From Candidatus Aminicenantes bacterium (GTDB lineage Bacteria > Acidobacteriota > Aminicenantia > Aminicenantales > Saccharicenantaceae), in assembly GCA_963717865.1 (NCBI GenBank), contig CAVQXL010000005.1:337716-401715 (forward strand): a stretch of DNA of 64,000 bases, given 5' to 3'. A program made the translations under genes and the position numbers. Under the pieces are notes generated by a model, which was not told the DNA's origin, ran no database searches, and saw nothing but the letters and a program-made list of their open reading frames with translations. Position 1 is the first letter of the stretch, and each line of letters starts with the position of its first letter. This document shows, piece by piece, positions 1 to 15,350 of the stretch.

Positions 1-168
1 CCCAGGTCGGCCAGGCGGAGGCGGCTCTTATCGCCGGGGAACACGGTTTCCAGGATCCGCCGCGTGGAAATGACCAGGGGATGGACCTCCATCGAATAAT
101 CGTCATCGGGCTTGGTCAGAGTCCCGTCGTCGAGGCGGATGTTGTGCGAAGTGAATTCGACGCCCATA
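1..168 (-). CDS. hypothetical protein, N-terminal fragment (gene runs off window start)
   Basis: Minus-strand reading frame from ATG at 168 (MGVEFTSHNIRLDDGTLTKPDDDYSMEVHPLVISTRRILETVFPGDKSRLRL...) with no stop before position 1. No family recognised. Confidence 0.3.
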
Positions 169-1058: not shown

Positions 1059-1983
1059 CTATCTTCTCCGGTACACATCGGTGCTCAGGTACTTGAGGCC
1101 GGAGTCGGCCATCAGCGTGACTACCCTGGCGTTCGGCCCGAGCCGCTCTGCGACGCGTATCGCGGCGACGACGTTCGCTCCGGAAGACGTCCCCGCGAAG
1201 AGGGCCTCCTCCCGCGCGAGGCGCCTCGCCATTTCCTTCGCGTCGTCCGTCCTGACCGGCAGGATATCGTCGATAAGAGACGGCTCCCAGAGCGGAGGAG
1301 TGTAGCCGATCCCCACTCCTTCGATCTTGTGAGGGCCTGCCGGTCCTCCCAGCAGAACCGAGGATTCCGCGGGTTCGACGGCGACGATCCTGATGCCCGG
1401 CTTGTGCCGCTTCAGCACGGTGGCGACCCCGCGCGAGGACGCCGCCGTTCCCACGCAGTGAACGAAGGCGTCGATCTCCCCGTTCATCTGGCTCCAGATC
1501 TCCTCGCCCAGCGGGTAGTAGCCCGCGATGCTGTCCTGGTTGTTGAGCTGGTCGGTCCAGTAGGTGTGAGGTTCCCGGCTCAACCCGCGGGCGGCCTCGA
1601 TCATGTCCAGGATCAGCTTCTTGGTGGTGAGGCCTCCCTCGCTCGGGACGAGCGTCAGCTCGGCGCCGAGCGCCGCCATATGATCCAGCTTCTCCTTGCT
1701 GAAGGCATCGGAGCTGACGATCCGGAGACGGTAGCCTTTGGCGGCGCAGACCAGGGCCAGCGATGTCCCGGTGCTGCCGCCCGTGTACTCGACGACGGTG
1801 TCACCGGGCTTCAGTCGGCCGTCCTCCTCCGCCCGCGAGATCACGGCCCGCGCCATCCGGTCCTTGACGCTGCCGGTGGGATTCTCCCACTCGAGCCTTC
1901 ACGAAGATGGCCGCGCAACCGGCCGGAACGACCTTGCGAAGTCGAACGAGCGACGTGTTTCCGATGGCCTGGAGAATGTCCAT
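1059..1983 (-). CDS. cysK: cysteine synthase (PLP-dependent, CysK/CysM family), apparent +1 insertion near 1895
   Basis: N-terminus MDILQAIGNTSLVRLRKVVPAGCAAIFVK is in ORF 1801..1983. The rest (ARAVISRAEEDGRLKPGDTVVEYTGGSTG...KIEGVGIGYTP...) is in ORF 1059..1856. The expected KLEWENPTGSVKDRMA is recovered if one G is removed. Confidence 0.8.
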
Positions 1984-2393
1984 GGGTCGAGACCTCCTTC
2001 GCTTCTATCCTTAACGCGAGTATAAGCGTTGCTCCCGATCCGTTCAACACGCCTTTCACCTGTCCAGGTGGCTGTGCAGGAAGGCCATCGTCTCGGCCCG
2101 GGACCGGCAGCCGCCGGATTCACGGTCTTTGATATCCGGCATGGCTCGACGTGGACGTCACGACGATAGTCCTCCCGGACGTCGGACATGAATTCAAGGG
2201 CCGGGATTGTTATGCCCGGCCTCTATGGCGCCGCCGCTCCCTGGGTAACGGCCCCGCCCCGAATCTTGACACAGTCTTGACGAATCCATGACAAGTCGTC
2301 GGCCCGGCCGCTTTATCCTTTGGCTGCAGCCAAGCATGGACATCGAGGAGATGAATTGTTATATGATACTCCTGTCTCGGGGGGAGGTTGGTC

Positions 2394-3410
2394 ATGGGTG
2401 CTACCGGTGTCGGCATCGTTTCCATGAGCTATCGGACGCCGGTTCGGGCGGTCTCGAGCGCCGAGCTCGAGGACAAGCTCGAGCTGGGGCGGGGGGTGAT
2501 CGAGCGTTTGACGGGGATCCGCAGCCGGCGCTGGCTGGGACCCGGCGAATCCCTTCAAGGCCTGGCTCTCGACTCCTGCCTCGAGGCCTTGGCCGCGGCG
2601 GGTCCGGACGGCATCGACAGCCTGATCTACTACTCGGACACGCCCCCGACGCGGCCCGAGGGAGGCGAGCATAAGCGGATCTACTATGATGTCTCGGCCC
2701 ATCTCCAGAACCTCCTGGCTGAATCGGGGATGCCGTTGGCCTGCGACTGCGTCGGCATCGCGGGGAGCTGCGTCTCCTTCCTGCTCTCCCTCCAGATGGC
2801 CGCCGGGCTTATCAAGTCGGGGATGAAGCGGCGGGTCCTGCTCGTGGGGGCGGCCTCGAACTCGCTTTTCCTGGAGGACACCGACAAGAACGTGTCCATG
2901 ACCTTCGGCGACGGCGCCGCCGCCTGCGTCCTGGGCGGAGAGGCGGAGATCGAGCTTCTGGGCGTGCACTGCAGGACCGACGGGAGGGGCTACGCGGCCG
3001 GCGGGTATCCCGACTACGCCTCGCTCTTCGTCGACCGCAAGAGAGTGGCCGAATTCGCCCCCCTCGGCCTCCAGGCGGGTTGGCACGGGCTTCTGGAGGC
3101 GACCGGACTACGTCCCGACGATATCGACGTCGTCATCCCTCATCAGGCCGGGATCAAGATCATCGAGCGCGGAATGGCGCTGGCGAACATTCCGGCCGAG
3201 AAAGTATTCCTCTGCCTGCACGATGTGGGGAACATCGGCGCGCCGGCGGTGCAGATGGCCCTGGCCCGGGCCGTTGAGGAGGGCCGCGTCCGGGACGGGG
3301 ACGTCGTGGCCCTGATCGCTTTCGGGACAGGCTGGAACTACGGAGGGGCGGCCCTGCGCTACCGGACCCGGCGGGGACGGGCGCGGGACGGATGGGAGAC
3401 GCGGCCATGA
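2394..3410 (+). CDS. 3-oxoacyl-ACP synthase III-like condensing enzyme (KAS III / FabH family)
   Basis: 338 aa with a GGGAGG RBS 5 nt upstream of ATG 2394. Catalytic triad context is visible: Cys in LACDCVGIAGSC, His in VIPHQAG, Asn in HDVGNIGAPAV. The C-terminal GTGWNYGGA is typical of the thiolase-fold KAS III family. Confidence 0.8.
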   Translation: MGATGVGIVSMSYRTPVRAVSSAELEDKLELGRGVIERLTGIRSRRWLGPGESLQGLALDSCLEALAAAGPDGIDSLIYYSDTPPTRPEGGEHKRIYYDVSAHLQNLLAESGMPLACDCVGIAGSCVSFLLSLQMAAGLIKSGMKRRVLLVGAASNSLFLEDTDKNVSMTFGDGAAACVLGGEAEIELLGVHCRTDGRGYAAGGYPDYASLFVDRKRVAEFAPLGLQAGWHGLLEATGLRPDDIDVVIPHQAGIKIIERGMALANIPAEKVFLCLHDVGNIGAPAVQMALARAVEEGRVRDGDVVALIAFGTGWNYGGAALRYRTRRGRARDGWETRP

Positions 3411-3438
3411 AGACCGCGCCGCCGCAGAGCTTTTCCGG

Positions 3439-4629
3439 ATGCCCTGGTCGGCCTCGGACAATGCCATGACCTGGCTCGAGCCGACCCGCAAGTGCAACAT
3501 CGCCTGCGACGCCTGCTTTGCCACGAACGATCCTCAAAGCGAGAAGCCGCTGGAGCGCATCCAGGCCGAGATCCGGTCGATGCGCCGCCTGCGCCGCTCC
3601 GACGGCATGTTCATCGCGGGCGGGGAGCCCTTGACCCATCCCCGGATCCTGGACATCGTCCGGCTCGTCCGGGCCAGCGACTATAAGCCCGTCCTCGTCA
3701 CGAACGGGGTCGGTCTGACTTCCGTCCGGGTGAAGGACCTGAAGCTGGCCGGCTTGTTCGGCTTCACTTTCCACGTCGATAGCCACCAAAACCGGCCCGG
3801 CTGGAAGGGGAGGGATGAGAAGGCCCTTAACGCCCTGCGGCAGGAGCTGGCCGACATGGTCCTCGAGGCCGGCGGGATGGTCTGCGGGTTCAACCTGACC
3901 GTCTTCCCCGATACCCTGGACCAGATGCCCGATGTCGTGGCCTGGGCTTTGCGCAACATCGACCGTGTCCAGTCCTACACTCTGACCGCCCTACGACAGG
4001 TCGACCCGGAGTTGCCGTTCGACGCTTATGTGGGCGGCCGGAAGCTCGACCTGGCCGGGACCGTCTACTTCTCGCCGGGGCCGCGGCGCAACCTGATGTC
4101 CGAGGACATCCTGGCCCAGGTCCGAAGGATCATGCCGGACTACCGCCCGAGCGCGTTCCTGGGGGGGACGGTCCGGCCGCACGCCCTGAAGCTGGCCATG
4201 GGCTCACGCATCGGAACGACCCGGGAGTCCTTCGGCAACCTGGGACCGAGAAGCATGGAGTTCCTACAGAGCGCCCATCACTGGCTGAAAGGGACGTACC
4301 TGGCCTTTCCCCGCCCCGGCTTCAGCCGGAAGGGCCGGTCCGCCTTCCTGTTCGCCGTTTTCGACGCCGAGGTCCGGCGGGCGCTGGGAGCCTACCTGCG
4401 CGCCGCGGCCCGCGCCCCCTGGATCCTCTTCCGCCGGGTCCACGTCCAGAGCCTCAACATCGAGCAGGCCTTCGACGTCCTGCCCAACGGCGAGCAGGAC
4501 CATTGCGACGGCTGCCCCAACAAGACCCTCTGGGGCGACCGGCTCGTCTCGGCCTGCGTCCTGGACGAGTACATCAAGTACGGGGCCCAGGCCGTGCTCG
4601 TGCCCAAGGCCCGGGCCGAGGGGTCTTGA
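3439..4629 (+). CDS. radical SAM enzyme, paralog 1 (HpnH-like organisation)
   Basis: CX3CX2C motif CNIACDAC at residues 19-26, [34 protein letters not shown], and C-terminal CDGCPNK...C cluster. 396 aa. Paralog of 6321..7517. Confidence 0.8.
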   Translation: MPWSASDNAMTWLEPTRKCNIACDACFATNDPQSEKPLERIQAEIRSMRRLRRSDGMFIAGGEPLTHPRILDIVRLVRASDYKPVLVTNGVGLTSVRVKDLKLAGLFGFTFHVDSHQNRPGWKGRDEKALNALRQELADMVLEAGGMVCGFNLTVFPDTLDQMPDVVAWALRNIDRVQSYTLTALRQVDPELPFDAYVGGRKLDLAGTVYFSPGPRRNLMSEDILAQVRRIMPDYRPSAFLGGTVRPHALKLAMGSRIGTTRESFGNLGPRSMEFLQSAHHWLKGTYLAFPRPGFSRKGRSAFLFAVFDAEVRRALGAYLRAAARAPWILFRRVHVQSLNIEQAFDVLPNGEQDHCDGCPNKTLWGDRLVSACVLDEYIKYGAQAVLVPKARAEGS

Positions 4630-4631
4630 TC

Positions 4632-5756
4632 ATGGGCGGCGCCGTCGAGATCCGTGAGGTCGGGACGAAGCGCGAGCTGCGGGCGTTCATCCGCCTGCCA
4701 TGGGCCCTGCATGCCGGCCACGACCGATGGGTGCCGCCCCTGCTGGCCGAGGAGCGGGCCTTCTTCCGGGCGCAGTCGAACCCCGCCTTCGCCTACTCCG
4801 ATACGCTTCTCCTGCTGGCCCGGCGCAACGGCGTCGCCGTCGGCCGCGTCATGGGCATCGTCAACCGCCGCTATAACGAAGCTAAGGGGGACAGCCAAGC
4901 CCGCTTCGCCTGTCTCGAGTGCGGCGACGACCTCGATCTCGTCCGGCGGCTTCTCGGCCGGGTGGAGGAGTGGGCCCGCGGTTTGGGTCTGCGGCGTCTG
5001 GTCGGCCCGCTCGGCTTCACCGACCAGGATCCGCAGGGCTTCTTGATGGACGGGTACGAGCACGAGCCCTCCATCGGGACCTACGTCAACCTTCCTTATA
5101 TGCCCCGCCTGATGGAAGCCCTGGGCTACGACAAGGAGATGGGATACGTCGTCTACCGGATCGACCTGCCGAGGCAGGTCCCCGAGTTCTACTGCAAGGT
5201 GGCGGAGCGGGCGGCCCTCAAGAGCGGCGTCCTCCTCCTCGACATCCGGCGCCGCCGCGAGCTCCGGCCGCACATCCGTCCGGTCCTGGTCCTGATGAAC
5301 GAATGTTTCCGAGAGCTCTACGGCTACTCCGTCCTCGATGATCGGGAGATGGAAGCGCTGGCCCGCCGCTTCCTCCCCGTCCTGGACCCCCGCTTCGTTA
5401 AGATCGCCGTGCGAGGCGGAGAAGTCGTGGGTTTCAACATCGCCATGCCGAACCTGGCCGAGGGCTTCCGCCGCGCCGACGGCCGGCTGTTGCCCCTGGG
5501 CTTCCTGAAGCTCCTCCGGGCCGGGCGCCGGACGCACCAGCTCGACACCCTTGTCGGGGGGGTCCGGGCCGATTTCCGGGGCAAGGGCATCGATGCGATG
5601 ATCGGCTGCGCGACCATGGCCGCGGCCATCGAGGCCGGGTTCGAGTTCGTCGACAGCCATCACGAGCTCGAATACAACCAGAAGGTCCGCAGCGAGATGG
5701 AGCGGCTGGGCGGCCGGATCTACAAGTCCTACCGCATCTTCCGCAAGGATTTGTGA
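4632..5756 (+). CDS. GNAT-fold (acyl-CoA N-acyltransferase-like) protein, 374 aa
   Basis: ATG 4632 lies 2 nt after the previous stop (TGATCATG). N-terminal IREVGTKRELRAFIRLPWALHAGHDRWVPPLL is typical of a large two-lobed GNAT-like family. The stop overlaps the next gene start. Confidence 0.5.
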   Translation: MGGAVEIREVGTKRELRAFIRLPWALHAGHDRWVPPLLAEERAFFRAQSNPAFAYSDTLLLLARRNGVAVGRVMGIVNRRYNEAKGDSQARFACLECGDDLDLVRRLLGRVEEWARGLGLRRLVGPLGFTDQDPQGFLMDGYEHEPSIGTYVNLPYMPRLMEALGYDKEMGYVVYRIDLPRQVPEFYCKVAERAALKSGVLLLDIRRRRELRPHIRPVLVLMNECFRELYGYSVLDDREMEALARRFLPVLDPRFVKIAVRGGEVVGFNIAMPNLAEGFRRADGRLLPLGFLKLLRAGRRTHQLDTLVGGVRADFRGKGIDAMIGCATMAAAIEAGFEFVDSHHELEYNQKVRSEMERLGGRIYKSYRIFRKDL

Positions 5757-5764
5757 GGAGGCCC

Positions 5765-6298
5765 ATGCGAGCCCGCTTCGATCGCTGGCTGATGGAACGG
5801 CCGCTGCGGGGCCCTGTGATCTTCCTGGGCCGCTGCGGCCTGCGGCCGAACGCGGTCACTGCGACCGGGCTGGCATTGGGCGCGGCGATCCCCGTGCTCC
5901 ACCAAGCCCGGCGATTCGGCTGGGTCGCCGCGGCCATGATCGTCCGGCAACTCCTGGACTGCCTGGACGGGGAGATCGCCCGCCGCTTCCGGCTCGAATC
6001 GCGGGCCGGCGCGGTCCTGGACTCCGTTTCCGACGGGTTCTTCTTCTTCGCCCTGGTCTGGCTCGCGGCGTCCCGCTTCTCCGGCCGGGTCGCCGTCGAC
6101 TTGGCCTTGACCGCGGGGGCGCTCGCGATCCTGGCCGCGATCCATGTCGCATTCTGCGGGCTCGCCGCGCTGACCGACCACTCGGTGAAAACCTACGACA
6201 CGCCGTCCCTCTACCGGAAGAGCTACGCCTTCCTGATCAGCAACAGCATGCTTTTCGTGCCCGCGCTCGCCGGGCTCTACCTGGGGTTCCCGGAATGA
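5765..6298 (+). CDS. CDP-alcohol phosphatidyltransferase family membrane protein (alternative GTG start 5753)
   Basis: Motif DGEIARRFRLESRAGAVLDSVSD fits D-G-x2-A-R-x8-G-x3-D-x3-D. The protein is hydrophobic, with GGAGG 3 nt before ATG 5765. Confidence 0.75.
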   Translation: MRARFDRWLMERPLRGPVIFLGRCGLRPNAVTATGLALGAAIPVLHQARRFGWVAAAMIVRQLLDCLDGEIARRFRLESRAGAVLDSVSDGFFFFALVWLAASRFSGRVAVDLALTAGALAILAAIHVAFCGLAALTDHSVKTYDTPSLYRKSYAFLISNSMLFVPALAGLYLGFPE

Positions 6299-6320
6299 GG
6301 ACCGCGATGGAGGACTCCCG

Positions 6321-7517
6321 TTGAGCATAGACCGCCGGCGACTCTATCGGTTTCCATGGTCCAAGACCGACAACCCGGGCGGCTGGGTGGACGTCACGGA
6401 CGTCTGCAACCTGCACTGCCCGCTCTGCTACCGGGTCTCCCGGGAGGGGCACCGCCTGCTGGGGGAGGTCCTGGCCGACGTCGACGCTTGCCGGGCCATG
6501 ACCAACTGCGACGACATGAAGATCGCCGGGGGCGAGCCCCTGACCTATCCGCACCTGCTCGACGTCGTCCGCCATATCGCCAACCGCGGGATGAAGCCGT
6601 TCCTGCTGACGAACGGCATGGGCCTCGACCGGGTGATGGTCCGGTCCCTGGCGGCGGCGGGGCTCTGCAAGTTCAATTTCCACGTCGATTCGGGTCAGAA
6701 CCGGCCGGGATGGGAGGGAAGGACCGAAGCGGAACTCAACGGGCTGCGGCAGTCCCTGGCCGACCTCGTGGCCGGGGTGCGCGGCCTTGGCTGCGGCTTC
6801 AACGTCACCGTCTCGCCCGCCAACCTGCCGGACCTCCCGGACGTCCTGGGTTGGGCCTTGCGCAACGTCCGGATCGTCCACCACATGACCTTGATCGCCT
6901 TACGCGGGATCGCTGTCGGCGACGACGTGGCCCTGTTCGCCAACGGTCGGCGCCTGCCGGACGGGCTTCTCCCCACGGCGGCCCCGGACGCCGGCTCGGT
7001 CGGACTGACGACGGACGATCTCCTGCAAAGCCTGCGCGGCCGCTACCCGTCCCTGGTTCCCTCGGCCTACCTCAACGGCGCGGCCTTCCCCGAGACCAAC
7101 AAGTACCTCGTCTCGGTGCTGATCGCCTCGCGGCGCGAGCTTTTCGGCTCGCTCGGCCCCAAGTCGATGGAGATCGTCCAGACGGCCATCCACCTCGTCC
7201 GCGGCCGCTACGCGGCCATCACCCGGCGGACCAAGGCGGGTCGGAAGACGTTCTTGCTGGCGGCCTTCGACGCGGAGGTCCGGCGTGCCCTGGGGCGATA
7301 CCTTCGTTCTGCCGTCCGCCGCCCGTGGCGCCTGCTCGACGGGATCTACATCCAGTCCATCGCCCTGGAGCAGCCCCTCGAGATCCTCGACGGCGAGGCC
7401 AACGTCTGCGACGACTGCATCAACATGATGATCCACCGCGGCCGCCTCATCCCGTCCTGCCGGTTGGAAGAATACCGGACGTTCGGCTCGGCCCTGACGT
7501 CCCAGAAGATCGTCTGA
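6321..7517 (+). CDS. radical SAM enzyme, paralog 2 (HpnH-like organisation), TTG start
   Basis: CX3CX2C motif [42 protein letters not shown], and C-terminal [18 protein letters not shown]. 398 aa. A GGAGGA RBS lies 6 nt before TTG 6321. Confidence 0.8.
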
Positions 7518-7665
7518 GCCGTCGGCTGTCGACCCAGGACGTCCGCAGGAGGCTCAGCTCCTTGTCGTCTTTCGCGGCGTTTGCCCGGAAAAACCCCGCT
7601 CTACCTCAAGGAGACGGAATTCCGATATAATCATCGCCGGTCAAGACCGTGTGAGGAGAGATCCC

Positions 7666-7800
7666 ATGAAAGACGTTATGATCGCGGGTGCCGTCCGAAC
7701 GGCCATAGGAAAATTCAATGGCACGCTATCGGGTACTCCGGCCGTCCGGCTGGGGGCTATAGCTATTAAAGAGGCTCTCAAGCGGCGAGGAACATCGCTT
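7666..7800 (+). pseudogene. acetyl-CoA acetyltransferase (thiolase) N-terminal stump
   Basis: [42 protein letters not shown] matches a thiolase N-terminus but the frame collapses after about 45 codons. A GAGGAG RBS is present. An unrelated C-terminal tail (..[34 protein letters not shown]) ends at 7922. Confidence 0.6.
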
Positions 7801-7953
7801 CCGTCGCGGGAGCGAAGGGCGACGTCCTCGAGGCGATCGTGGACAGAATGGTCAAAGAAAAGAACGTCCGATTGGAATATGCCCAGGAGCTCTTGAAGGA
7901 ATATTCCGGCAAGAAGTCCTGATGAGCGCGATCCGGATGAAAGGGGGACTCAA

Positions 7954-9193
7954 ATGCATTTAACGGAACAGGAAAAAGCGATCCTGGCGGGCGCGGAAGG
8001 GGAAGCCCCGAAGCTGGCCATGGAGATCCTGCAAAAGGTGGGAGAGATCAACGAGGCGGAGAGATTGATCCCGATCCAGAGCGTGCACCTTGTCCTGCAC
8101 GCCTACAAAAGCGCATTTGACGCGGGCGTCGACGCGGCCGTCAAGATCGCCGAGATGGGCGGCAAGTTCACCGTGCCCACCACGATCGACCCTTACGGGA
8201 TGGACGCCGAGGACTGGAAAGGGGCGAGGACCCCGGAACACTATGCCAAACAGCAGATCAGGCTGGATGAGGCCGTGTCGAAGATGGGCGTCCTGCCGGT
8301 TTGGACATGCACTCCTTATTACGGGTTCAACGTGCCGCGATTCGGAGACCATATCGCCTGGTCTGAATCGTCCGCCGTCGCCTATGCCAACACCGTGATC
8401 GGCGCGAGGACCAATAGGCAGACGGCCATCGTCGACATTTGCTGCGGCATCCTGGGGAAGGTCCCCGAGACCGGGTTGCACCTTCAGAAGAACCGTTACG
8501 GGGAAGTCCTGATCCGCTTCGATGTCGACAGGGAGCTCGAGTCATGGGAATTTCCGGCTCTCGGCTATCTCCTCGGCAAAAGGCTCGGCAGCCGGATCGG
8601 CGTCGTCCATGGAATGAAAGGCGCTCCGAAGCACGAGGCCCTCAAGTCTCTCTGCGCCGCGGCGGCCGCCGCCGGCTCCGTGACCCTGCTCCATATCGTC
8701 GGCGTGACGCCGGAGGCCAGGACGCTGGAAGAGGCGTTCGGGCCCAATAAGCCCGTCGAGGAATTCACGGGTCACGGCCGATGATCTGATGCAAACGCGC
8801 CATGATATGTGCACCTATAAAGGCGACAAGATCGATTTTGTCGCGCTGGGCTGTCCTCACTACACCATCAACGAGATCGTCAATGTCCACAATCTGCTCA
8901 AAGGGCGCAAGGTGAATCCCGGGACCCATTTCTGGATCTATGCCAATAGCTACGCTATCGACCTGGCGGAGCAAATGGGTCTGCGCAAGTCGCTGGAGGA
9001 AGCGGGCGTCGTCATCCGCGCGGAAACATGCATGATCATTTCGCCGATAGCCAATTGGGGCTTCAAAACGCTGATGACGGATTCGGGGAAGTGTTCCTAT
9101 TATGGCCCGGCGGAATGCGGCACGGAGATGATCTTCGCCGGCGTGGATGAATGCGTGGAAGCCGCCGTTTCGGGCAAGCTATCGAAATCGTAG
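7954..9193 (+). CDS. aconitase X catalytic subunit (AcnX large, DUF521), apparent frameshift at ~8780
   Basis: ORFs 7954..8784 and 8789..9193 are consecutive pieces (..PVEEFTGHGR / DLMQTRHDMCTYKGDKIDFVALGCPHYTINEI..). Together they are about 410 aa of AcnX/mevalonate-5-phosphate dehydratase-like sequence. Confidence 0.75.
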
Positions 9194-9208
9194 GACAGGG
9201 GTGGAGCT

Positions 9209-9628
9209 ATGAGAAAGATATCGGGGAGAGGCGTCATCGAAGGCACGGCCAAGGGGGAGGCGATCGTTTCGACCCAGCCTTTCGGCTTTTTCGGAGGCGT
9301 GGATCCGTCGACCGGACGGGTCATCGATAAACGCCACGAGCTTTATGGGCAGAACATCAAAGGGAAGATCATGGTATACCCTGAAGGCAGGGGCTCGACC
9401 GTGGGCGCCGCGGTGGTTCTGGAGCTGATGCGCACAGGCTGCGCTCCGGCGGCCATCATCAACGTGAAGATAGAGACCATTACCGCGGCCGGCGGCTTGA
9501 TGGCCAAGAAGTTCTACAACAAAGACATCCCCATGGTGGATCGCCTTTCCGAAGATCCGGTCAAGGCCATAAAGACCGGCGATATCGTCGAAGTGAACGG
9601 CACCACGGGAGAAGTGACCATTTATTGA
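9209..9628 (+). CDS. aconitase X swivel-domain subunit (AcnX small, DUF126)
   Basis: 139 aa (..GEAIVSTQPFGFFGGVDPSTGRVID..KIMVYPEGRGSTVGAAVVLEL..) immediately after the large subunit. Confidence 0.75.
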   Translation: MRKISGRGVIEGTAKGEAIVSTQPFGFFGGVDPSTGRVIDKRHELYGQNIKGKIMVYPEGRGSTVGAAVVLELMRTGCAPAAIINVKIETITAAGGLMAKKFYNKDIPMVDRLSEDPVKAIKTGDIVEVNGTTGEVTIY

Positions 9629-11588: not shown

Positions 11589-11779
11589 GTTATCCTCCCT
11601 CCGCGATCCGGTTCGATGAAATCAGGTTGATTCGACAATAGCATAGGAAAAGGCCGGGTTCAAGGTTCCGCTCAGTGCCATTGACGTTGCGAGCCGCCTT
11701 TCTCTATGATATTTTCAGGTCAACTTTTAAAGAAGATGAATTCCCGAAGGGCCCGCGAAAACAAAAGGAGGGTTGCTCT

Positions 11780-12400
11780 ATGGTCATAACCAACGTTGCC
11801 AGGAAGATCGAATATTTTCATGCCTCGAAGTATGGAAATGGAACCATGGTTGCGGAAGAGTTCAAGAAACAGATGGCCGCCAAGGGGGTCGCTGTCATCG
11901 TCCATCATGTCAGGGATGTGAGGCCAAAGGAATTTCATGCCTCGAAGTATGGAAACGGAGCCATGGTCGCGGAGGAGTTCAAGAAGCAGATGGCCGCCAA
12001 GGGGGTCACGGTCAACGTCCATCACATCCGGGATGCGAGGCCAAAGGAGATGCCGCCGGCCGACCTGTACCTGTTCAGCTCACCGGGGCGCATGGGCAAG
12101 CCCATCGGACGCATGCGCCGTTTCCTGAAGAAGGTCAAGCTGCCGTCGGGAACGAAGTACGCCATCCTGACCACCGAGGGCGCCCCTCGGCCGGACAAGA
12201 AGACCGGACGGATGCCCACCGAAGAGGAGCTGGCCAAGTGGCAGCGCGTCATCCCTATCATGAACGAAATACTGCAGGAAAAGGGCCTGGTCAAGGTCGC
12301 CGAGGGCAAGATCCTGGTGACCGGCCTCAAGGGGCCGCTGGAAGAGGGCTGGCAGAAGAAAGTGGAAGCCTTCGCATCCCAGATCCCCATCCTGCCTTAA
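11780..12400 (+). CDS. flavodoxin-like fold protein with internal in-frame 117-bp tandem duplication
   Basis: AAAAGGAGG RBS 7 nt before ATG 11780. KIEYFHASKYGNGTMVAEEFKKQMAAKG resembles the flavodoxin/WrbA N-terminus. A 39-aa segment is duplicated. Confidence 0.55.
   Translation: MVITNVARKIEYFHASKYGNGTMVAEEFKKQMAAKGVAVIVHHVRDVRPKEFHASKYGNGAMVAEEFKKQMAAKGVTVNVHHIRDARPKEMPPADLYLFSSPGRMGKPIGRMRRFLKKVKLPSGTKYAILTTEGAPRPDKKTGRMPTEEELAKWQRVIPIMNEILQEKGLVKVAEGKILVTGLKGPLEEGWQKKVEAFASQIPILP
11816..12049. repeat. 2 x 117-bp tandem direct repeat (~88% identical) inside flavodoxin-like CDS
   Basis: Unit 1 is 11816..11932 and unit 2 is 11933..12049. Both begin TTTCATGCCTCGAAGTATGGAAA. Confidence 0.85.
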
Positions 12401-12423: not shown

Positions 12424-13254
12424 ATGAACGGCAGAAAACTCATAGCAGGCATGTTTTTGATCGGGCTCTTGTCAGGGATCGCGCCCGCGTCCCCATGGGG
12501 CGAACCCGGCAGCGCCCTCCAGCCGGGTTATCATCTCGGGGGGAAGTATCTCTTGAACTTCGCCCCGGATTTCAAGAACATCGTCGTTTCCCCGTTCCAC
12601 TGGAAGGGGCGAGACGCGCTCCTATTCGGCGGCACCGCGGCGCTTACGGGTTTGCTGTATGCCTACGATGGGGACATCGGTCGATGGGTCCTGGACCATC
12701 GATCGCTCACGTCGAACGGCACGACCCGCTTCCTGACCCATCTCGCCGAGCCGCCGGCCATGCTGGGTCTGATCACGACGATGTACGCCACGGGCGAGGT
12801 CTTCGGCAAGCCGGGGCTGAGGCGAACGGCCCTGCTCAGCCTGGAAGCCTATGTCCTCCACTCCGCCACCAGCAGCTTCATAAAATTCATCACGGGGCGT
12901 TTGCGCTATGAAGCGGGCGAAGGTCCCCATTCCTTTCATCCATTCTCGATCGACTTCTCCAAGACATCTTTCCCTTCGGGCCATTCCGGCTCGATCTTCT
13001 CCGTGGCCGCGGTCATCGCCGGGGAAGCCGACAGCTGGGCCGTCGGCGCCCTGGCCTACGGCGTGGCGGGATTGGCGGCCATTTCGCGATTGCACGATAT
13101 GGACCATTGGGCCTCCGACATCCTGGCGGGGTCGGTCCTGGGTTTTTTCATCGGCAAAATGGTGCGGCATCTCAATCCGCACCGGGGGGCGGATTCTCCC
13201 GGCGCGGCGGGCGGGCGCGGGCCGGTCGGATTTTCCCTGTCGTTTCGATTCTGA
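12424..13254 (+). CDS. PAP2-family phosphatase (phosphatidic acid phosphatase type 2-like), alternative start 12400
   Basis: Signal-like N-terminus MNGRKLIAGMFLIGLLSGIAPASP. PAP2 motifs FPSGHSGS and SRLHDMDHWASDILAG. Confidence 0.75.
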   Translation: MNGRKLIAGMFLIGLLSGIAPASPWGEPGSALQPGYHLGGKYLLNFAPDFKNIVVSPFHWKGRDALLFGGTAALTGLLYAYDGDIGRWVLDHRSLTSNGTTRFLTHLAEPPAMLGLITTMYATGEVFGKPGLRRTALLSLEAYVLHSATSSFIKFITGRLRYEAGEGPHSFHPFSIDFSKTSFPSGHSGSIFSVAAVIAGEADSWAVGALAYGVAGLAAISRLHDMDHWASDILAGSVLGFFIGKMVRHLNPHRGADSPGAAGGRGPVGFSLSFRF

Positions 13255-13350
13255 AGAAAGGTCCAACGACCGATGTCCTCACCCCAAGGAGATGCTGAAA
13301 AAGGCCTTTTTTGGGGACAAATTGGACACAAACTGAAAAGTCCGAACAAA

Positions 13351-13380
13351 AGAGCCCCTTGTGCTTTTCTAGGGCAGGAC
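13351..13380 (+). promoter_or_regulatory. putative sigma70-type promoter (TTGTGC-N17-CATAAT) for amidohydrolase gene
   Basis: Hexamers seen 10-40 nt upstream of ATG 13390. Confidence 0.3.
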
Positions 13381-13389
13381 CCATAATCA

Positions 13390-14337
13390 ATGATGCATAA
13401 AAGGTCCGGGGTGGCAGCGCGCGTGAAATTCCTGAAGCTTTCGGTCATCTTTTTCGCCGCGGCCGGACTGTCCTGCGGCCGAGGCAAGACGGAACGCCCG
13501 CCCATGATCGATATGCACCTGCACGCGTTCAGCTTGGCCGACGGATCTGCCCCGCCGGAGAATCCGGTGACCGGGCGACCGTCCGCTTCCCGAACAACCG
13601 CGGAGCTTCGCGAGGCATCGCTGGCGGCGCTGGCGCACTACAACATCGTCAAGGCCTGCACCAGCGGTCCGCCGGAAACGGTCGCCCAGTGGCGTGCGGC
13701 GGCGCCGGATCGTGTGCTGGTCGGCGTGCATGTCGATGAGAATAACCCGCTGCCCGACTTAGCCTCGCTCCGAGCTGACATACTGGCGGGGCGCGTCCAT
13801 GTCCTCGGCGAGCTCGTCCTTCAGTACGTGGGCATGGGCCCCGACGATCCGCGGCTGGAACCATATTACGAGCTGGCCGAAGAGTTGGACATCCCCGTTG
13901 CCATCCATACGGGCATCGGCCCCCCTGGAACGCCCTATCTTCCCGGCCTCCAGGGCTTCCGTGTGACCCTGGGGAATCCGGCTCTCGTCGAGGACGTGCT
14001 CGTCCATCATCCGCGTCTGCGCGTCTACCTGATGCACGGGGGAGCTCCATACCTGCAGGAGACGAAGGCCATCCTGTCGGTGTATCCGCAGGTTTATCTG
14101 GATCTCGCGACGATTAATTGGATCCTGCCTCGCCAGGAGTTCCACAACTACCTCCACGAGCTCATGGTGGCGGGCTTCGGCAAGCGGCTGCTGTTCGGTT
14201 CGGATCAGATGTTCTGGCCCGAAGCGATTGGAATGGCCATCGAGGGGATCGAATCCGCCTCGTTCCTGTCAAAACAGGAAAAGCGCGACATCTTCTATAA
14301 CAATGCCGTCCGCTTCCTCAAGATCGAAGGGAAGTAA
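13390..14337 (+). CDS. amidohydrolase-2 family TIM-barrel metal-dependent hydrolase, lipoprotein-type signal
   Basis: 315 aa. The lipobox-like LSCG follows the signal peptide. HxH-type metal site (IDMHLHAF) and further His/Asp ligands. Confidence 0.65.
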   Translation: MMHKRSGVAARVKFLKLSVIFFAAAGLSCGRGKTERPPMIDMHLHAFSLADGSAPPENPVTGRPSASRTTAELREASLAALAHYNIVKACTSGPPETVAQWRAAAPDRVLVGVHVDENNPLPDLASLRADILAGRVHVLGELVLQYVGMGPDDPRLEPYYELAEELDIPVAIHTGIGPPGTPYLPGLQGFRVTLGNPALVEDVLVHHPRLRVYLMHGGAPYLQETKAILSVYPQVYLDLATINWILPRQEFHNYLHELMVAGFGKRLLFGSDQMFWPEAIGMAIEGIESASFLSKQEKRDIFYNNAVRFLKIEGK

Positions 14338-14564
14338 CGCTCGGACTCGCGCTGAGCCGGCCCACGGCTCCTTGGCCCCTTCCCGCCGGTTTCAGCGTCA
14401 TTGACATCCGATGATCCCCCGATCTATCATGCACAATTCGGGGATGAGACGATCTCGGTTCCAAAAACGCTCATAATGCCGGCGAAACAGAAAAAAGCCG
14501 TTGCTGATGCTTCAACACACGCCGACGGGACGGCGCGAGACTGAGGTTCTGATCGGAGCCCATC

Positions 14565-15350
14565 ATGCATATTGTCGTCTGTATCAAGCAGGTTCCCAAC
14601 ACCACCAACGTCGAGATCGATCCCGGCACCGGGACGCTGAAACGGGAAGGGGTCGAATCCGTCATCAATCCGTTCGATGAATTTGCCATCGAAGAAGGCG
14701 TTCGTCTCAAAGAACGGACGGGAGGACGGGTGACCGTCATGACCATGGGCCCTCCCCAGGCGGAATCCGCGCTTCGGGAAGCTGTGGCCCGGGGCGCTGA
14801 CCGGGCGGTCCTGATCACGGACCGCGCCTTCGCCGGCGCGGATACGTGGGCGACATCCTATACCCTGGCCAGCGCCATAAGAGCGATAGGGGACTACGAC
14901 CTCGTCCTCTGCGGGAAACAAGCTTCGGACGGAGACACCGCACAGGTGGGCCCCGGTGTCGCGGAAATGCTCGACATCCCGCATGTGGCCTACGTTAAAA
15001 AAATAGAAGAGATCGGGCCCGAGAGCATCCGGGTGGAGCGGATGATGGAAGACGGTTACGACCTGATCGAAATGCCTCTGCCCGCCCTGATCACGGTGGT
15101 CAAGGAGATCAACTTCCCGCGCCTGCCGTCCCTGAAGGGAATGATGGCGGCCAGGAAGGCCGTTATCGAAAAATGGGACGCGGCCCGGATCGGGGCGGAG
15201 GCTCCGAACATAGGGCTCACGGGCTCTCCCACCCAGGTGATGAAGATATTCAATCCTCCGCCCCGGCAGGGTGGGGAAGCGCTTTCCGGTTCCGTCGAGG
15301 AAATGGCGGCAGGGCTTGTCGAGCGCCTGAAAAAAGCACAGATGATCTAG
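14565..15350 (+). CDS. etfB: electron transfer flavoprotein beta subunit
   Basis: MHIVVCIKQVPNTTNVEIDPGTGTLKREGVESVINPFDEFAIEEGVRLKE is a classic EtfB N-terminus. 261 aa. Confidence 0.9.
   Translation: MHIVVCIKQVPNTTNVEIDPGTGTLKREGVESVINPFDEFAIEEGVRLKERTGGRVTVMTMGPPQAESALREAVARGADRAVLITDRAFAGADTWATSYTLASAIRAIGDYDLVLCGKQASDGDTAQVGPGVAEMLDIPHVAYVKKIEEIGPESIRVERMMEDGYDLIEMPLPALITVVKEINFPRLPSLKGMMAARKAVIEKWDAARIGAEAPNIGLTGSPTQVMKIFNPPPRQGGEALSGSVEEMAAGLVERLKKAQMI

Follow-up and report, generated by a model that had tools for sequence, protein, structure and literature searches.

The window analysed here is a stretch of 64,000 nucleotides from an uncultured Aminicenantes bacterium (Acidobacteriota). 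At 2394-7517 it holds five uninterrupted, closely packed open reading frames (ORFs) on the + strand, which encode a KAS III-like condensing enzyme, two radical S-adenosylmethionine (radical SAM) paralogs, rSAM-a and rSAM-b, a tandem GNAT-fold protein, and a CDP-alcohol phosphotransferase (CDP-OH). We infer that the five genes form one operon. The features of this region are as follows.

2383..2387, + strand: ribosome-binding site GGAGG, read directly, 6 nt 5′ of the KAS III ATG and marking the start of the operon
2394..3410, + strand: KAS III (FabH)-like condensing enzyme, 338 aa (Pfam ACP_syn_III and ACP_syn_III_C)
3439..4629, + strand: rSAM-a, the a-type radical SAM paralog, 396 aa, with a Tes/GDGT-MAS-like fold (PF04055)
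4632..5756, + strand: tandem-repeat GNAT acyltransferase, 374 aa
5753..6298, + strand: CDP-alcohol phosphotransferase, 181 aa, polytopic (PF01066)
6321..7517, + strand: rSAM-b, the b-type radical SAM paralog, 398 aa (Pfam and motif reading)
7547..7562, + strand: weak terminator-like hairpin, a possible operon end, 30 nt past the rSAM-b stop

A 28-nt gap separates the KAS III gene from rSAM-a, and only 2 nt (TGAtcATG) lie between rSAM-a and the GNAT gene. The GNAT and CDP-OH genes overlap by the 4 nt GTGA, and a 22-nt gap leads to rSAM-b, which starts with TTG preceded by a GGAGGA box. The 4-nt overlap hinges on the chosen start, since public gene calls place the CDP-OH start later (177 aa). 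The sequence at 2190-2393, upstream of the operon, is non-coding on the + strand, and a scan with the sigma-70 consensus found no + strand promoter upstream. Terminator-like sites in the region are not more numerous than the shuffled expectation, so the hairpin at 7547..7562 is only suggestive. When the window was compared with a 91%-identical relative (L005), dN/dS was 0.11-0.22 for all five genes (0.17 for KAS III, 0.11 for rSAM-a, and 0.11 for rSAM-b). This purifying selection indicates that the five genes are real and functional. A sister contig, L085, about 99% identical to the window, has a 1-nt insertion within rSAM-b, and the window copy is intact. A preliminary description of this DNA had reported five intact ORFs on one strand with these spacings, which reading of the ORFs and junctions confirmed, and the motifs it cited (CX3CX2C, the C-terminal CxxC...C, the CDP-OH motif, and the KAS triad) were all read directly.

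The two radical SAM proteins are 43% identical over their full length. In rSAM-a, which begins 18 residues before the motif, CX3CX2C is CNIACDAC at residue 19 (C19/C23/C26), while in rSAM-b it is CNLHCPLC at residue 29 (C29/C33/C36). Both have a C-terminal CxxC-x13-C, seen as CDGCPNKTLWGDRLVSAC at residue 356 of rSAM-a and as C363, C366, and C380 (motif from residue 363) of rSAM-b. An exhaustive profile search at E<=1e-30 gave a family of 277 representatives (50%-identity clusters), mostly of 370-430 aa, which is present in metagenome-assembled genomes (MAGs) of the Acidobacteriota lineage, one of them from peat. The a-type and b-type proteins are separate conserved orthologous groups, retained together across the family. 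C359 and C373 (rSAM-a numbering) are invariant, C149 and C356 occur in 90% or more of the sequences, and exactly three C-terminal cysteines are invariant or nearly so. C356, C359, and C373, plus C149, are candidate ligands of an auxiliary cluster. Because three of the seven cysteines of rSAM-a are taken by CX3CX2C, there is room for one such cluster. Pfam found neither a B12 domain nor SPASM in the two proteins.

What is the closest relative of these enzymes? Four methods agree that it is Tes/GDGT-MAS, the tetraether synthase that couples lipid tails, among solved or characterised proteins, for both rSAMs. The Tes references were archaeal (PDB 7TOL/7TOM and NCBIfam NF045702). Single-sequence phmmer against PDB found 7tol at E 6e-8. 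The family profile found it at E 3e-14, with every other solved radical SAM enzyme at 1e-6 or worse, and aligned the radical SAM core to 7tol residues 105-290. The AlphaFold2 model of rSAM-a has a pLDDT of 89.9, and Foldseek with this model gave Tes at E 8e-13 (TMq 0.57-0.60), the next family being BlsE at E 1.6e-8 (TMq 0.36). For hhalign, full-length Tes was rebuilt from the split ORFs of two contigs, L170 and L171, and the rSAM family aligned with the two re-joined genes at 97.8% probability, E 7e-13, over 324 columns. In the C-terminal half, hhalign picked out two collinear mini-motifs formed by invariant residues: HxxxGTYL, and C-x13-C together with G[KR]L[IV]P.C.

The rSAMs nevertheless fall far below the limits by which Tes is recognised. 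The Tes model NF045702 scores 43.6 bits with rSAM-a and 36.6 bits with rSAM-b, over the core only, against a cut-off of 450. They also lie far below the published criterion of BLASTP E<1e-50 (PMC8941075), under which they would not have passed as Tes homologs. Both have the CX3CX2C in a partial TIM-barrel core that is part of the description of Tes; by Pfam, neither has PF23545, which the Tes fragments carry. Tes has N-terminal Zn-ribbon/rubredoxin and [4Fe-4S]N domains, whereas the window enzymes are without both and are about 100-130 aa shorter. The C-terminal cysteines are arranged as CxxC...C in the window enzymes and as C...C-x13/14-C in Tes, where the catalytic [4Fe-4S]C cluster, which parks the first substrate radical, is bound by three Cys and a Met (PMC13459092). 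Furthermore, the window enzymes occur as conserved a/b pairs beside a tandem GNAT, and neither feature is reported for Tes.

HpnH is a lipid-modifying radical SAM enzyme of similar length, but its likeness to the window enzymes is limited to the radical SAM core, and the fold ranking does not favour adenosylating enzymes. An HpnH-type, adenosylating identity, which the preliminary description had offered as an example, was rejected on this ranking and on the scores (for TIGR03470, 36.7 and 35.9 bits where 225 are required). Its other example, cross-linking of a hydrocarbon tail, fits the closeness of the rSAMs to Tes/GDGT-MAS. A SPASM/twitch peptide maturase was also rejected: Tes stands well ahead of SuiB, SkfB, and PqqE in the ranking, and nothing resembling a precursor peptide was seen in the gene context.

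The Tes genes used for the alignment are split into adjacent ORFs, at 2501-4138 in L170 (297 + 245 aa) and at 2501-3968 in L171 (304 + 177 aa), and are flanked by a DUF3738 gene in L170 and by CarS (archaeal) in L171. Both contigs belong to the ENA accession series of the locus-bearing contig (ERZ250394xx-ERZ250395xx), and the split Tes genes suggest frameshift errors in these assemblies. A large-database search with a Tes core fragment matched only truncated Tes proteins of at most 326 aa.

The 374-aa GNAT protein of the window has no match in Pfam or NCBIfam; PF00583 is recorded for some of its homologs. It consists of two consecutive GNAT folds in one chain, of the MshD / MAB_4324-like tandem type. 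In its C-terminal domain, R316-G-K-G319-I-D321 is invariant and lies where one would expect the CoA pyrophosphate-binding loop; its last position is Asp, compared with the canonical acyl-CoA loop Q/R-x-x-G-x-G/A. OlsB-type families gave no sequence match with the tandem GNAT.

The KAS III class of enzymes selects branched primers. The window protein has both Pfam KAS III domains and an intact triad of Cys126 (GSCVSF), His250 (PHQA), and Asn280 (GNIG), aligned to solved FabH structures, and so has the Cys-His-Asn triad and the thiolase fold of FabH. However, it scores 159.6 and 154.1 bits with the FabH subfamily models TIGR00747 and NF006829, against cut-offs of 249 and 292, and its ortholog in a related contig, L099, gives 180 and 176 bits with the same models. 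It is a divergent FabH-like enzyme.

The CDP-OH protein has at least three hydrophobic segments and, at residue 72, DGEIARRFRLESRAGAVLDSVSD, an exact match to DGx2ARx8Gx3Dx3D. It belongs to PF01066 (48.1 bits, gathering threshold 22), and its relatives in PDB are AF2299 and PIP synthases. The best NCBIfam model, archaetidylinositol-phosphate synthase, gives 48.7 bits against a cut-off of 180, with PIP synthases and all others lower. As no subfamily cut-off is reached (AIP/PIP synthase, PgsA, PssA, and ClsA), the head-group class is not assignable. Of 15 cluster copies, 13 still have the catalytic motif, although identity drops to 39-46%.

Gene neighbourhoods were read from Pfam-annotated gene calls. 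GNAT-centred loci were collected from 451 species genomes, almost all of them Aminicenantes MAGs, and the best 80 loci were inspected. Defining the neighbourhood by the GNAT proved misleading, as most members are solo, and rSAM-centred loci were used instead: 31 metagenome loci, each flanked on either side by 2.5 kb or more, in which neighbours were counted within 6 kb. The most frequent neighbours of an rSAM were the tandem GNAT (17/31) and a second rSAM of the family (15/31). An alpha-oxoamine synthase (AOS) and a saccharopine-dehydrogenase-like reductase (SacDH) were each present at 10 of the 31 loci, with a divergent SacDH at 4 further loci. CDP-OH and KAS III were each found at 7/31, a B12-type radical SAM protein of about 525 aa at 6/31, and PAP2_3 at 3/31. 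Up to four rSAM paralogs occur in tandem (L122). CDP-OH and PAP2_3, which are non-homologous phospho-head-group transferases, alternate among related clusters, and one PAP2 protein of the relatives has a weak match to phosphoinositol-dihydroceramide synthase. The AOS proteins of related clusters match serine palmitoyltransferase best, at 407-488 bits, below the cut-off of 640 and with BioF/Kbl close behind. In L099 (75% identity), the AOS gene lies directly upstream of KAS in a six-gene AOS-KAS-rSAMa-GNAT-CDPOH-rSAMb operon. The B12-type proteins give weak HpnJ-like matches, 38-50 bits against a cut-off of 578.

The full five-gene order was seen only in L005, L006, and L007 among the best 80 GNAT-centred loci, and these are close Aminicenantes relatives; L007 derives from a peat MAG (SPRUCE isolate). 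The same gene order recurs across independent assemblies, both MAGs and metagenome contigs, at 39-92% identity. The hosts of rSAM clusters are uncultured in every case. As for conservation of the neighbourhood, which the preliminary description had proposed to check, the rSAM-GNAT core recurs widely, whereas the exact five-gene set is confined to close relatives. Nor is the pathway self-contained, as had been suggested, for relatives add AOS, a SacDH-like reductase, or a B12-type radical SAM protein, or swap CDP-OH for PAP2_3. The operon is thus one variant of a modular family of lipid clusters with a core of Tes-like rSAM and tandem GNAT.

The solo GNAT homologs (L008-L084, e.g., L009 7998-9125 and L046 7974-9119; about 50% identity) are found in most Aminicenantes and Saccharicenans, in a housekeeping setting with rnf operon or Mrp-like antiporter genes upstream and polA, then yceD-plsX-fabG-(acpP)-fabF, downstream.

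A protein fusion, P0510, joins a PlsC-type acyltransferase (PF01553, 51 bits) to a full-length rSAM of the family. By hhalign the rSAM part aligns at 99.9%, E 2e-31, over 354 columns, taking in the N-terminal PW..N..W.EPT and the C-terminal C.GCP...C motifs. P0510 is present on 38 contigs of archaeal MAGs, where it adjoins a 336-aa relative of the tandem GNAT (hhalign 96.7%, E 3.5e-10), and the rSAM-GNAT core is therefore conserved across two domains of life, recurring widely among lipid enzymes. In L172 / L173 (5079-10688), P0510 is accompanied by a diacylglycerol-kinase-like lipid kinase, a DUF3419 protein, a 301-aa protein, and the tandem-GNAT relative. These contigs are archaeal, with PCNA and wyosine genes nearby, and the gene set itself is of the bacterial acyl-lipid type. 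PAP2_3-rSAM and rSAM-rSAM fusions were seen as single copies and may be gene-calling artefacts.

How does this set of genes compare with known lipid systems? A 2026 review (to 2025) lists as lipid radical SAM enzymes Tes, Mss, Gms, GrsA/B, Gmm, Cds, HpnH/J/P/R, Jaw5, and the ladderane enzymes, and ties none of them to a cluster with GNAT, AOS, or CDP-OH. Targeted searches of the literature on radical SAM enzymes with Spt/bCerS, on radical SAM enzymes with Aminicenantes lipids, and on membrane-spanning sphingolipids did not find the system described. The window proteins fall outside Tes, HpnH, the FabH cut-off, every CDP-OH subfamily, and the Spt pathway. The earlier claim of a coherent, undescribed lipid-related gene set thus stands: nothing like it is in the review, and in the profile searches that had been recommended, no protein reached a curated NCBIfam cut-off and the rSAMs came nearest to Tes rather than HpnH. 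The operon type appears to be undescribed and probably works like a known lipid-tail radical SAM enzyme within a lipid gene cluster.

Mss, of Thermotoga and Thermoanaerobacter, is a bacterial radical SAM enzyme that joins two fatty-acyl tails, in anaerobes, and is remotely related to Tes (PMC13159169). No GNAT, AOS, or CDP-OH neighbourhood is described for it. The cultured Acidobacteria that were examined are reported to lack Mss, and only 3 of 14 producers of membrane-spanning lipids were found to have canonical Tes homologs (PMC13159169). Gms is reported to have an AhbD-like architecture with an N-terminal extension and to cluster with tes or mss in bacteria. An AhbD-like radical SAM/SPASM protein with an N-terminal extension of about 125 aa is encoded upstream of the family rSAM in L001, L112, and L145, and matches Gms by this described architecture. 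It is always paired with a 627-aa protein (L001 4742-8020, L112 3423-~6000, and L145 4393-~7100) that has no Pfam or NCBIfam match, and the pair lies upstream of genes for the Tes-like rSAM, B12-type radical SAM protein, GNAT, and PAP2_3.

The bacterial ceramide pathway Spt-bCerS-CerR of Caulobacter comprises an AOS, an N-acyltransferase, and a reductase, often clustered (PMC11087976, PMC11334938). The same logic is seen in related clusters, where the counterparts are the Spt-like AOS, the tandem GNAT, and the SacDH-like reductase. However, the AOS scores 407-488 rather than 640 bits, the reductase is of another family (Sacchrp_dh), and the window has neither AOS nor reductase. We know of no radical SAM enzyme in ceramide synthesis. 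Ornithine and other amino-acid lipids are made by OlsB (N-acyltransferase) and OlsA (PlsC-type), or by the fused OlsF. This pairing of a GNAT-fold N-acyltransferase with PF01553 is echoed by the archaeal P0510 locus; the window, in contrast, has no PlsC gene, and its rSAM, KAS III, and CDP-OH genes have no Ols counterpart. A phospho-alcohol is transferred onto a hydroxyl-bearing lipid by two known non-homologous routes, through ceramide phosphoethanolamine (CPE) synthase of the CDP-alcohol type and through sphingomyelin synthase (SMS) and inositol phosphorylceramide (IPC) synthase of the PAP2 type. The alternation of CDP-OH and PAP2_3 in the clusters mirrors these routes, at the level of family membership only and with a weak match to NF052609.

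We propose that the KAS III-like enzyme would prime or build a dedicated acyl chain, plausibly with a branched terminus. The tandem GNAT would then move the acyl group from its thioester to the amine of a lipid precursor, giving an amide-linked lipid like a ceramide or an ornithine lipid. In related clusters the amine may come from the Spt-like AOS and the SacDH-like reductase; here its source would be encoded outside the window. CDP-OH would add a phospho-alcohol head group, PAP2_3 taking its place in other variants. The rSAM paralogs, probably acting jointly or in sequence, would abstract hydrogen from unactivated carbons of saturated tails and, helped by one C-terminal auxiliary Fe-S cluster, form C-C bonds in the manner of Tes/GDGT-MAS. 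A macrocyclic or membrane-spanning lipid would result. We judge it fairly probable that the rSAMs at least work on the alkyl chains of lipids. The full proposal, in which the operon yields an N-acylated phospholipid with its saturated tails cross-linked by radical chemistry, is tentative and falls somewhat short of probable. The earlier idea of an amino-lipid gains from the tandem-GNAT fold and the Spt-like AOS of related clusters, the product itself being a deduction.

Several observations weigh against the full proposal. The C-terminal half of the rSAMs alone gave only noise against PDB sequences and nothing significant by hhalign against the two Tes C-terminal parts, and on the predicted model the likeness to Tes outside the radical SAM core would be structural only. 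Because the Zn-ribbon and [4Fe-4S]N domains are missing, the chemistry could differ from that of Tes. In about 70 of the best 80 GNAT-centred loci the GNAT stands solo, near rnf, polA, and plsX-fabG-fabF, so it is not strictly dependent on an rSAM in cis; conversely, it is missing within 6 kb at 14 of the 31 rSAM loci. By structure, the enzymes closest to the tandem GNAT have amino sugars and small amines, rather than lipids, as their substrates. Neither AOS nor SacDH is present in the window.

The rSAM pair could instead couple the iso-branched tails of ordinary glycerolipids, giving iso-diabolic-acid or brGDGT-type lipids. KAS III, of a class generally known to select branched primers, would supply the iso-branched chains, and GNAT and CDP-OH would have head-group or unrelated roles. 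The Tes-like fold agrees with this alternative, as do the recurrent PlsC-type fusion partner, which is a glycerolipid acyltransferase, and the Gms-like and B12-type radical SAM genes of relatives. The host, too, is an acidobacterium with related contigs from the peat MAG L007, and the iso-diabolic-acid synthase of Acidobacteria is still to be found (PMC13159169). However, glycerolipid coupling leaves unexplained both the tandem GNAT as the most constant neighbour and the recurring Spt-like AOS with SacDH. Furthermore, the neighbourhood listings contain no ether-lipid gene of the plsA/Ger, elb, or agps type (such genes were not sought specifically), and the hosts are all uncultured. We consider this alternative unlikely.

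Equally unlikely is another kind of radical lipid modification that involves no tail coupling, for example, ring formation, hydroxylation, desaturation, an intrachain cross-link, or a head-group rearrangement, with the likeness to Tes reflecting a shared lipid-binding scaffold only. Two of the four Tes metal sites are absent from the rSAMs, their C-terminal half cannot be aligned to Tes at the sequence level, lipid radical SAM chemistry is diverse (Grs, Cds, HpnJ, and Jaw5), and the four tandem paralogs of L122 suggest diversified reactions. But the candidate ligands that are kept are those of a [4Fe-4S]C-type cluster, the one used for radical parking in C-C coupling, and the B12 domain needed for Grs-type cyclisation or methylation is lacking.

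A non-membrane specialised metabolite or signal, such as an AOS-derived amino-ketone like CAI-1 or alaremycin, would make the GNAT a tailoring N-acetyltransferase and the rSAM substrate a small molecule. AOS enzymes do make signals and natural products, those of the related clusters are nearly as close to BioF/Kbl and pass no cut-off, the nearest structural relatives of the GNAT use soluble amines, and the composition of the clusters is variable, like that of natural-product clusters. We nevertheless think such a product improbable, because the integral-membrane head-group transferases (CDP-OH and PAP2_3) and the PlsC fusion tie the family to membrane lipids, the closest relative of the rSAMs is a lipid enzyme, and the neighbourhood listings show no consistent association with an NRPS, PKS, transporter, or regulator.

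The chance that the genes are merely adjacent and functionally unrelated (e.g., a housekeeping FabH with chance neighbours), or an assembly artefact, is very small: the GNAT family is mostly solo elsewhere and the assemblies are error-prone long-read contigs, but many independent assemblies share the order, at 39-92% identity, the junctions overlap or are very short, all five genes are under purifying selection, and the KAS protein fails the FabH cut-offs. Least credible of all is that HpnH-type rSAMs add 5′-deoxyadenosyl to a lipid C=C bond, as in a split hopanoid pathway, for although HpnH is among the weak radical SAM core matches, its scores lie far below 225 and are no better than those of about 20 other radical SAM families, and apart from the weak HpnJ-like matches of the B12-type proteins, the neighbourhoods inspected gave no Pfam or NCBIfam match to a hopanoid-pathway family (no shc model was run over the window as a whole).

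Membrane-spanning lipids such as iso-diabolic acid, brGDGTs (branched glycerol dialkyl glycerol tetraethers), and brGMGTs (branched glycerol monoalkyl glycerol tetraethers) are the basis of palaeotemperature and pH proxies in wide use, and their bacterial sources and enzymes are a long-standing problem. The rSAM family described here is nearest to Tes in structure, yet invisible to the homology thresholds of the field. The operon supplies clonable candidates, two soluble enzymes of about 400 aa suited to the anaerobic E. coli assay used for Mss, and these bear on where the bacterial membrane-spanning lipids of anoxic soils, peat, and sediments come from. The constant company of the family, an N-acyltransferase and Spt-like enzymes, raises the possibility of cross-linked amide lipids, so far undescribed, and a minimal Tes-like enzyme without two of the four metal sites would be useful for the mechanism of C(sp3)-C(sp3) coupling. 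One might go further and suppose that, in anaerobic Acidobacteriota (Aminicenantes) and in further uncultured phyla, the missing machinery for coupling tails is the Tes-like rSAM with the tandem GNAT. It would work by a minimal two-cluster Tes mechanism, and its products would be orphan brGDGT/iso-diabolic-acid-type lipids or amide-linked membrane-spanning lipids (a "bola-ceramide" or macrocyclic ceramide). We regard this extension as rather doubtful.

Some relatives carry further genes beside the operon. In L086 (3197-7395, - strand) and L002 (2481-5224, - strand), a trio lies upstream of KAS III and divergent from it, encoding a UbiG-type O-methyltransferase (137.6 bits; the cut-off is 103), an overlapping FAD_binding_4 oxidoreductase of 619-633 aa, and a beta-lactamase-fold protein. 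Window positions 1-167 (- strand) are the start of the trio methyltransferase found at 6209-7039 of L085. The trio may be an accessory tailoring module. A reading of the methyltransferase and FAD_binding_4 protein as mid-chain methylation of the CMAS/BfaAB type was dropped, as the methyltransferase passes the UbiG cut-off. Downstream in L002 are a sulfotransferase and a glycosyltransferase of GT21, the ceramide-glucosyltransferase family. In L086, a 64%-identity relative, a gene for a 509-aa multihaem cytochrome-like protein (13057-14586) overlaps the rSAM-b stop codon by 4 nt and so appears to be co-transcribed with rSAM-b. The protein could donate electrons to the rSAMs, or be unrelated.

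Downstream of the operon in the window, a thiolase N-terminal stub of 81 aa (7651-7896) is followed by the AcnX (aconitase-X) large subunit, split into 7954-8784 (profile positions 1-269) and 8789-9193 (279-400), and by the AcnX swivel/small subunit at 9209-9628. The two AcnX subunits beside a thiolase may resemble the phosphomevalonate dehydratase of the archaeal-type mevalonate pathway. The GC content of 7651-9628 is about 0.58, versus 0.65 in the flanks. The 99%-identical sister contig L085 has no counterpart of the segment 7785-9621, which is therefore either a strain-level indel or a piece that was acquired. Upstream of the operon, a PALP gene is truncated at 1059-1856. Other differences between the window and L085 lie mostly in two indel-dense patches upstream of the operon (window 1474-1530 and 2026-2207 vs L085 8345-8382 and 8612-8770). 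The insertion that splits rSAM-b in L085 is a single base at 13504, and the beta-lactamase and PALP genes of that contig are also fragmented. These differences have the look of consensus error in long reads and not of biology, and such error would account for the frameshift-riddled appearance of the window. That appearance had been noted in the preliminary description for much of the window; our check was local, and it showed the split of AcnX at 8784/8789, the thiolase stub, and the truncated PALP gene.

About 4 kb downstream of the operon, at 11675-12400 (+ strand), is a flavodoxin-like ORF with an internal tandem duplication of about 35 aa (FHASKYGNGxMVAEEFKKQMAAKGVxVxVHHxRDxRPKE, present two times). 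Radical SAM enzymes usually have flavodoxin as their physiological reductant.

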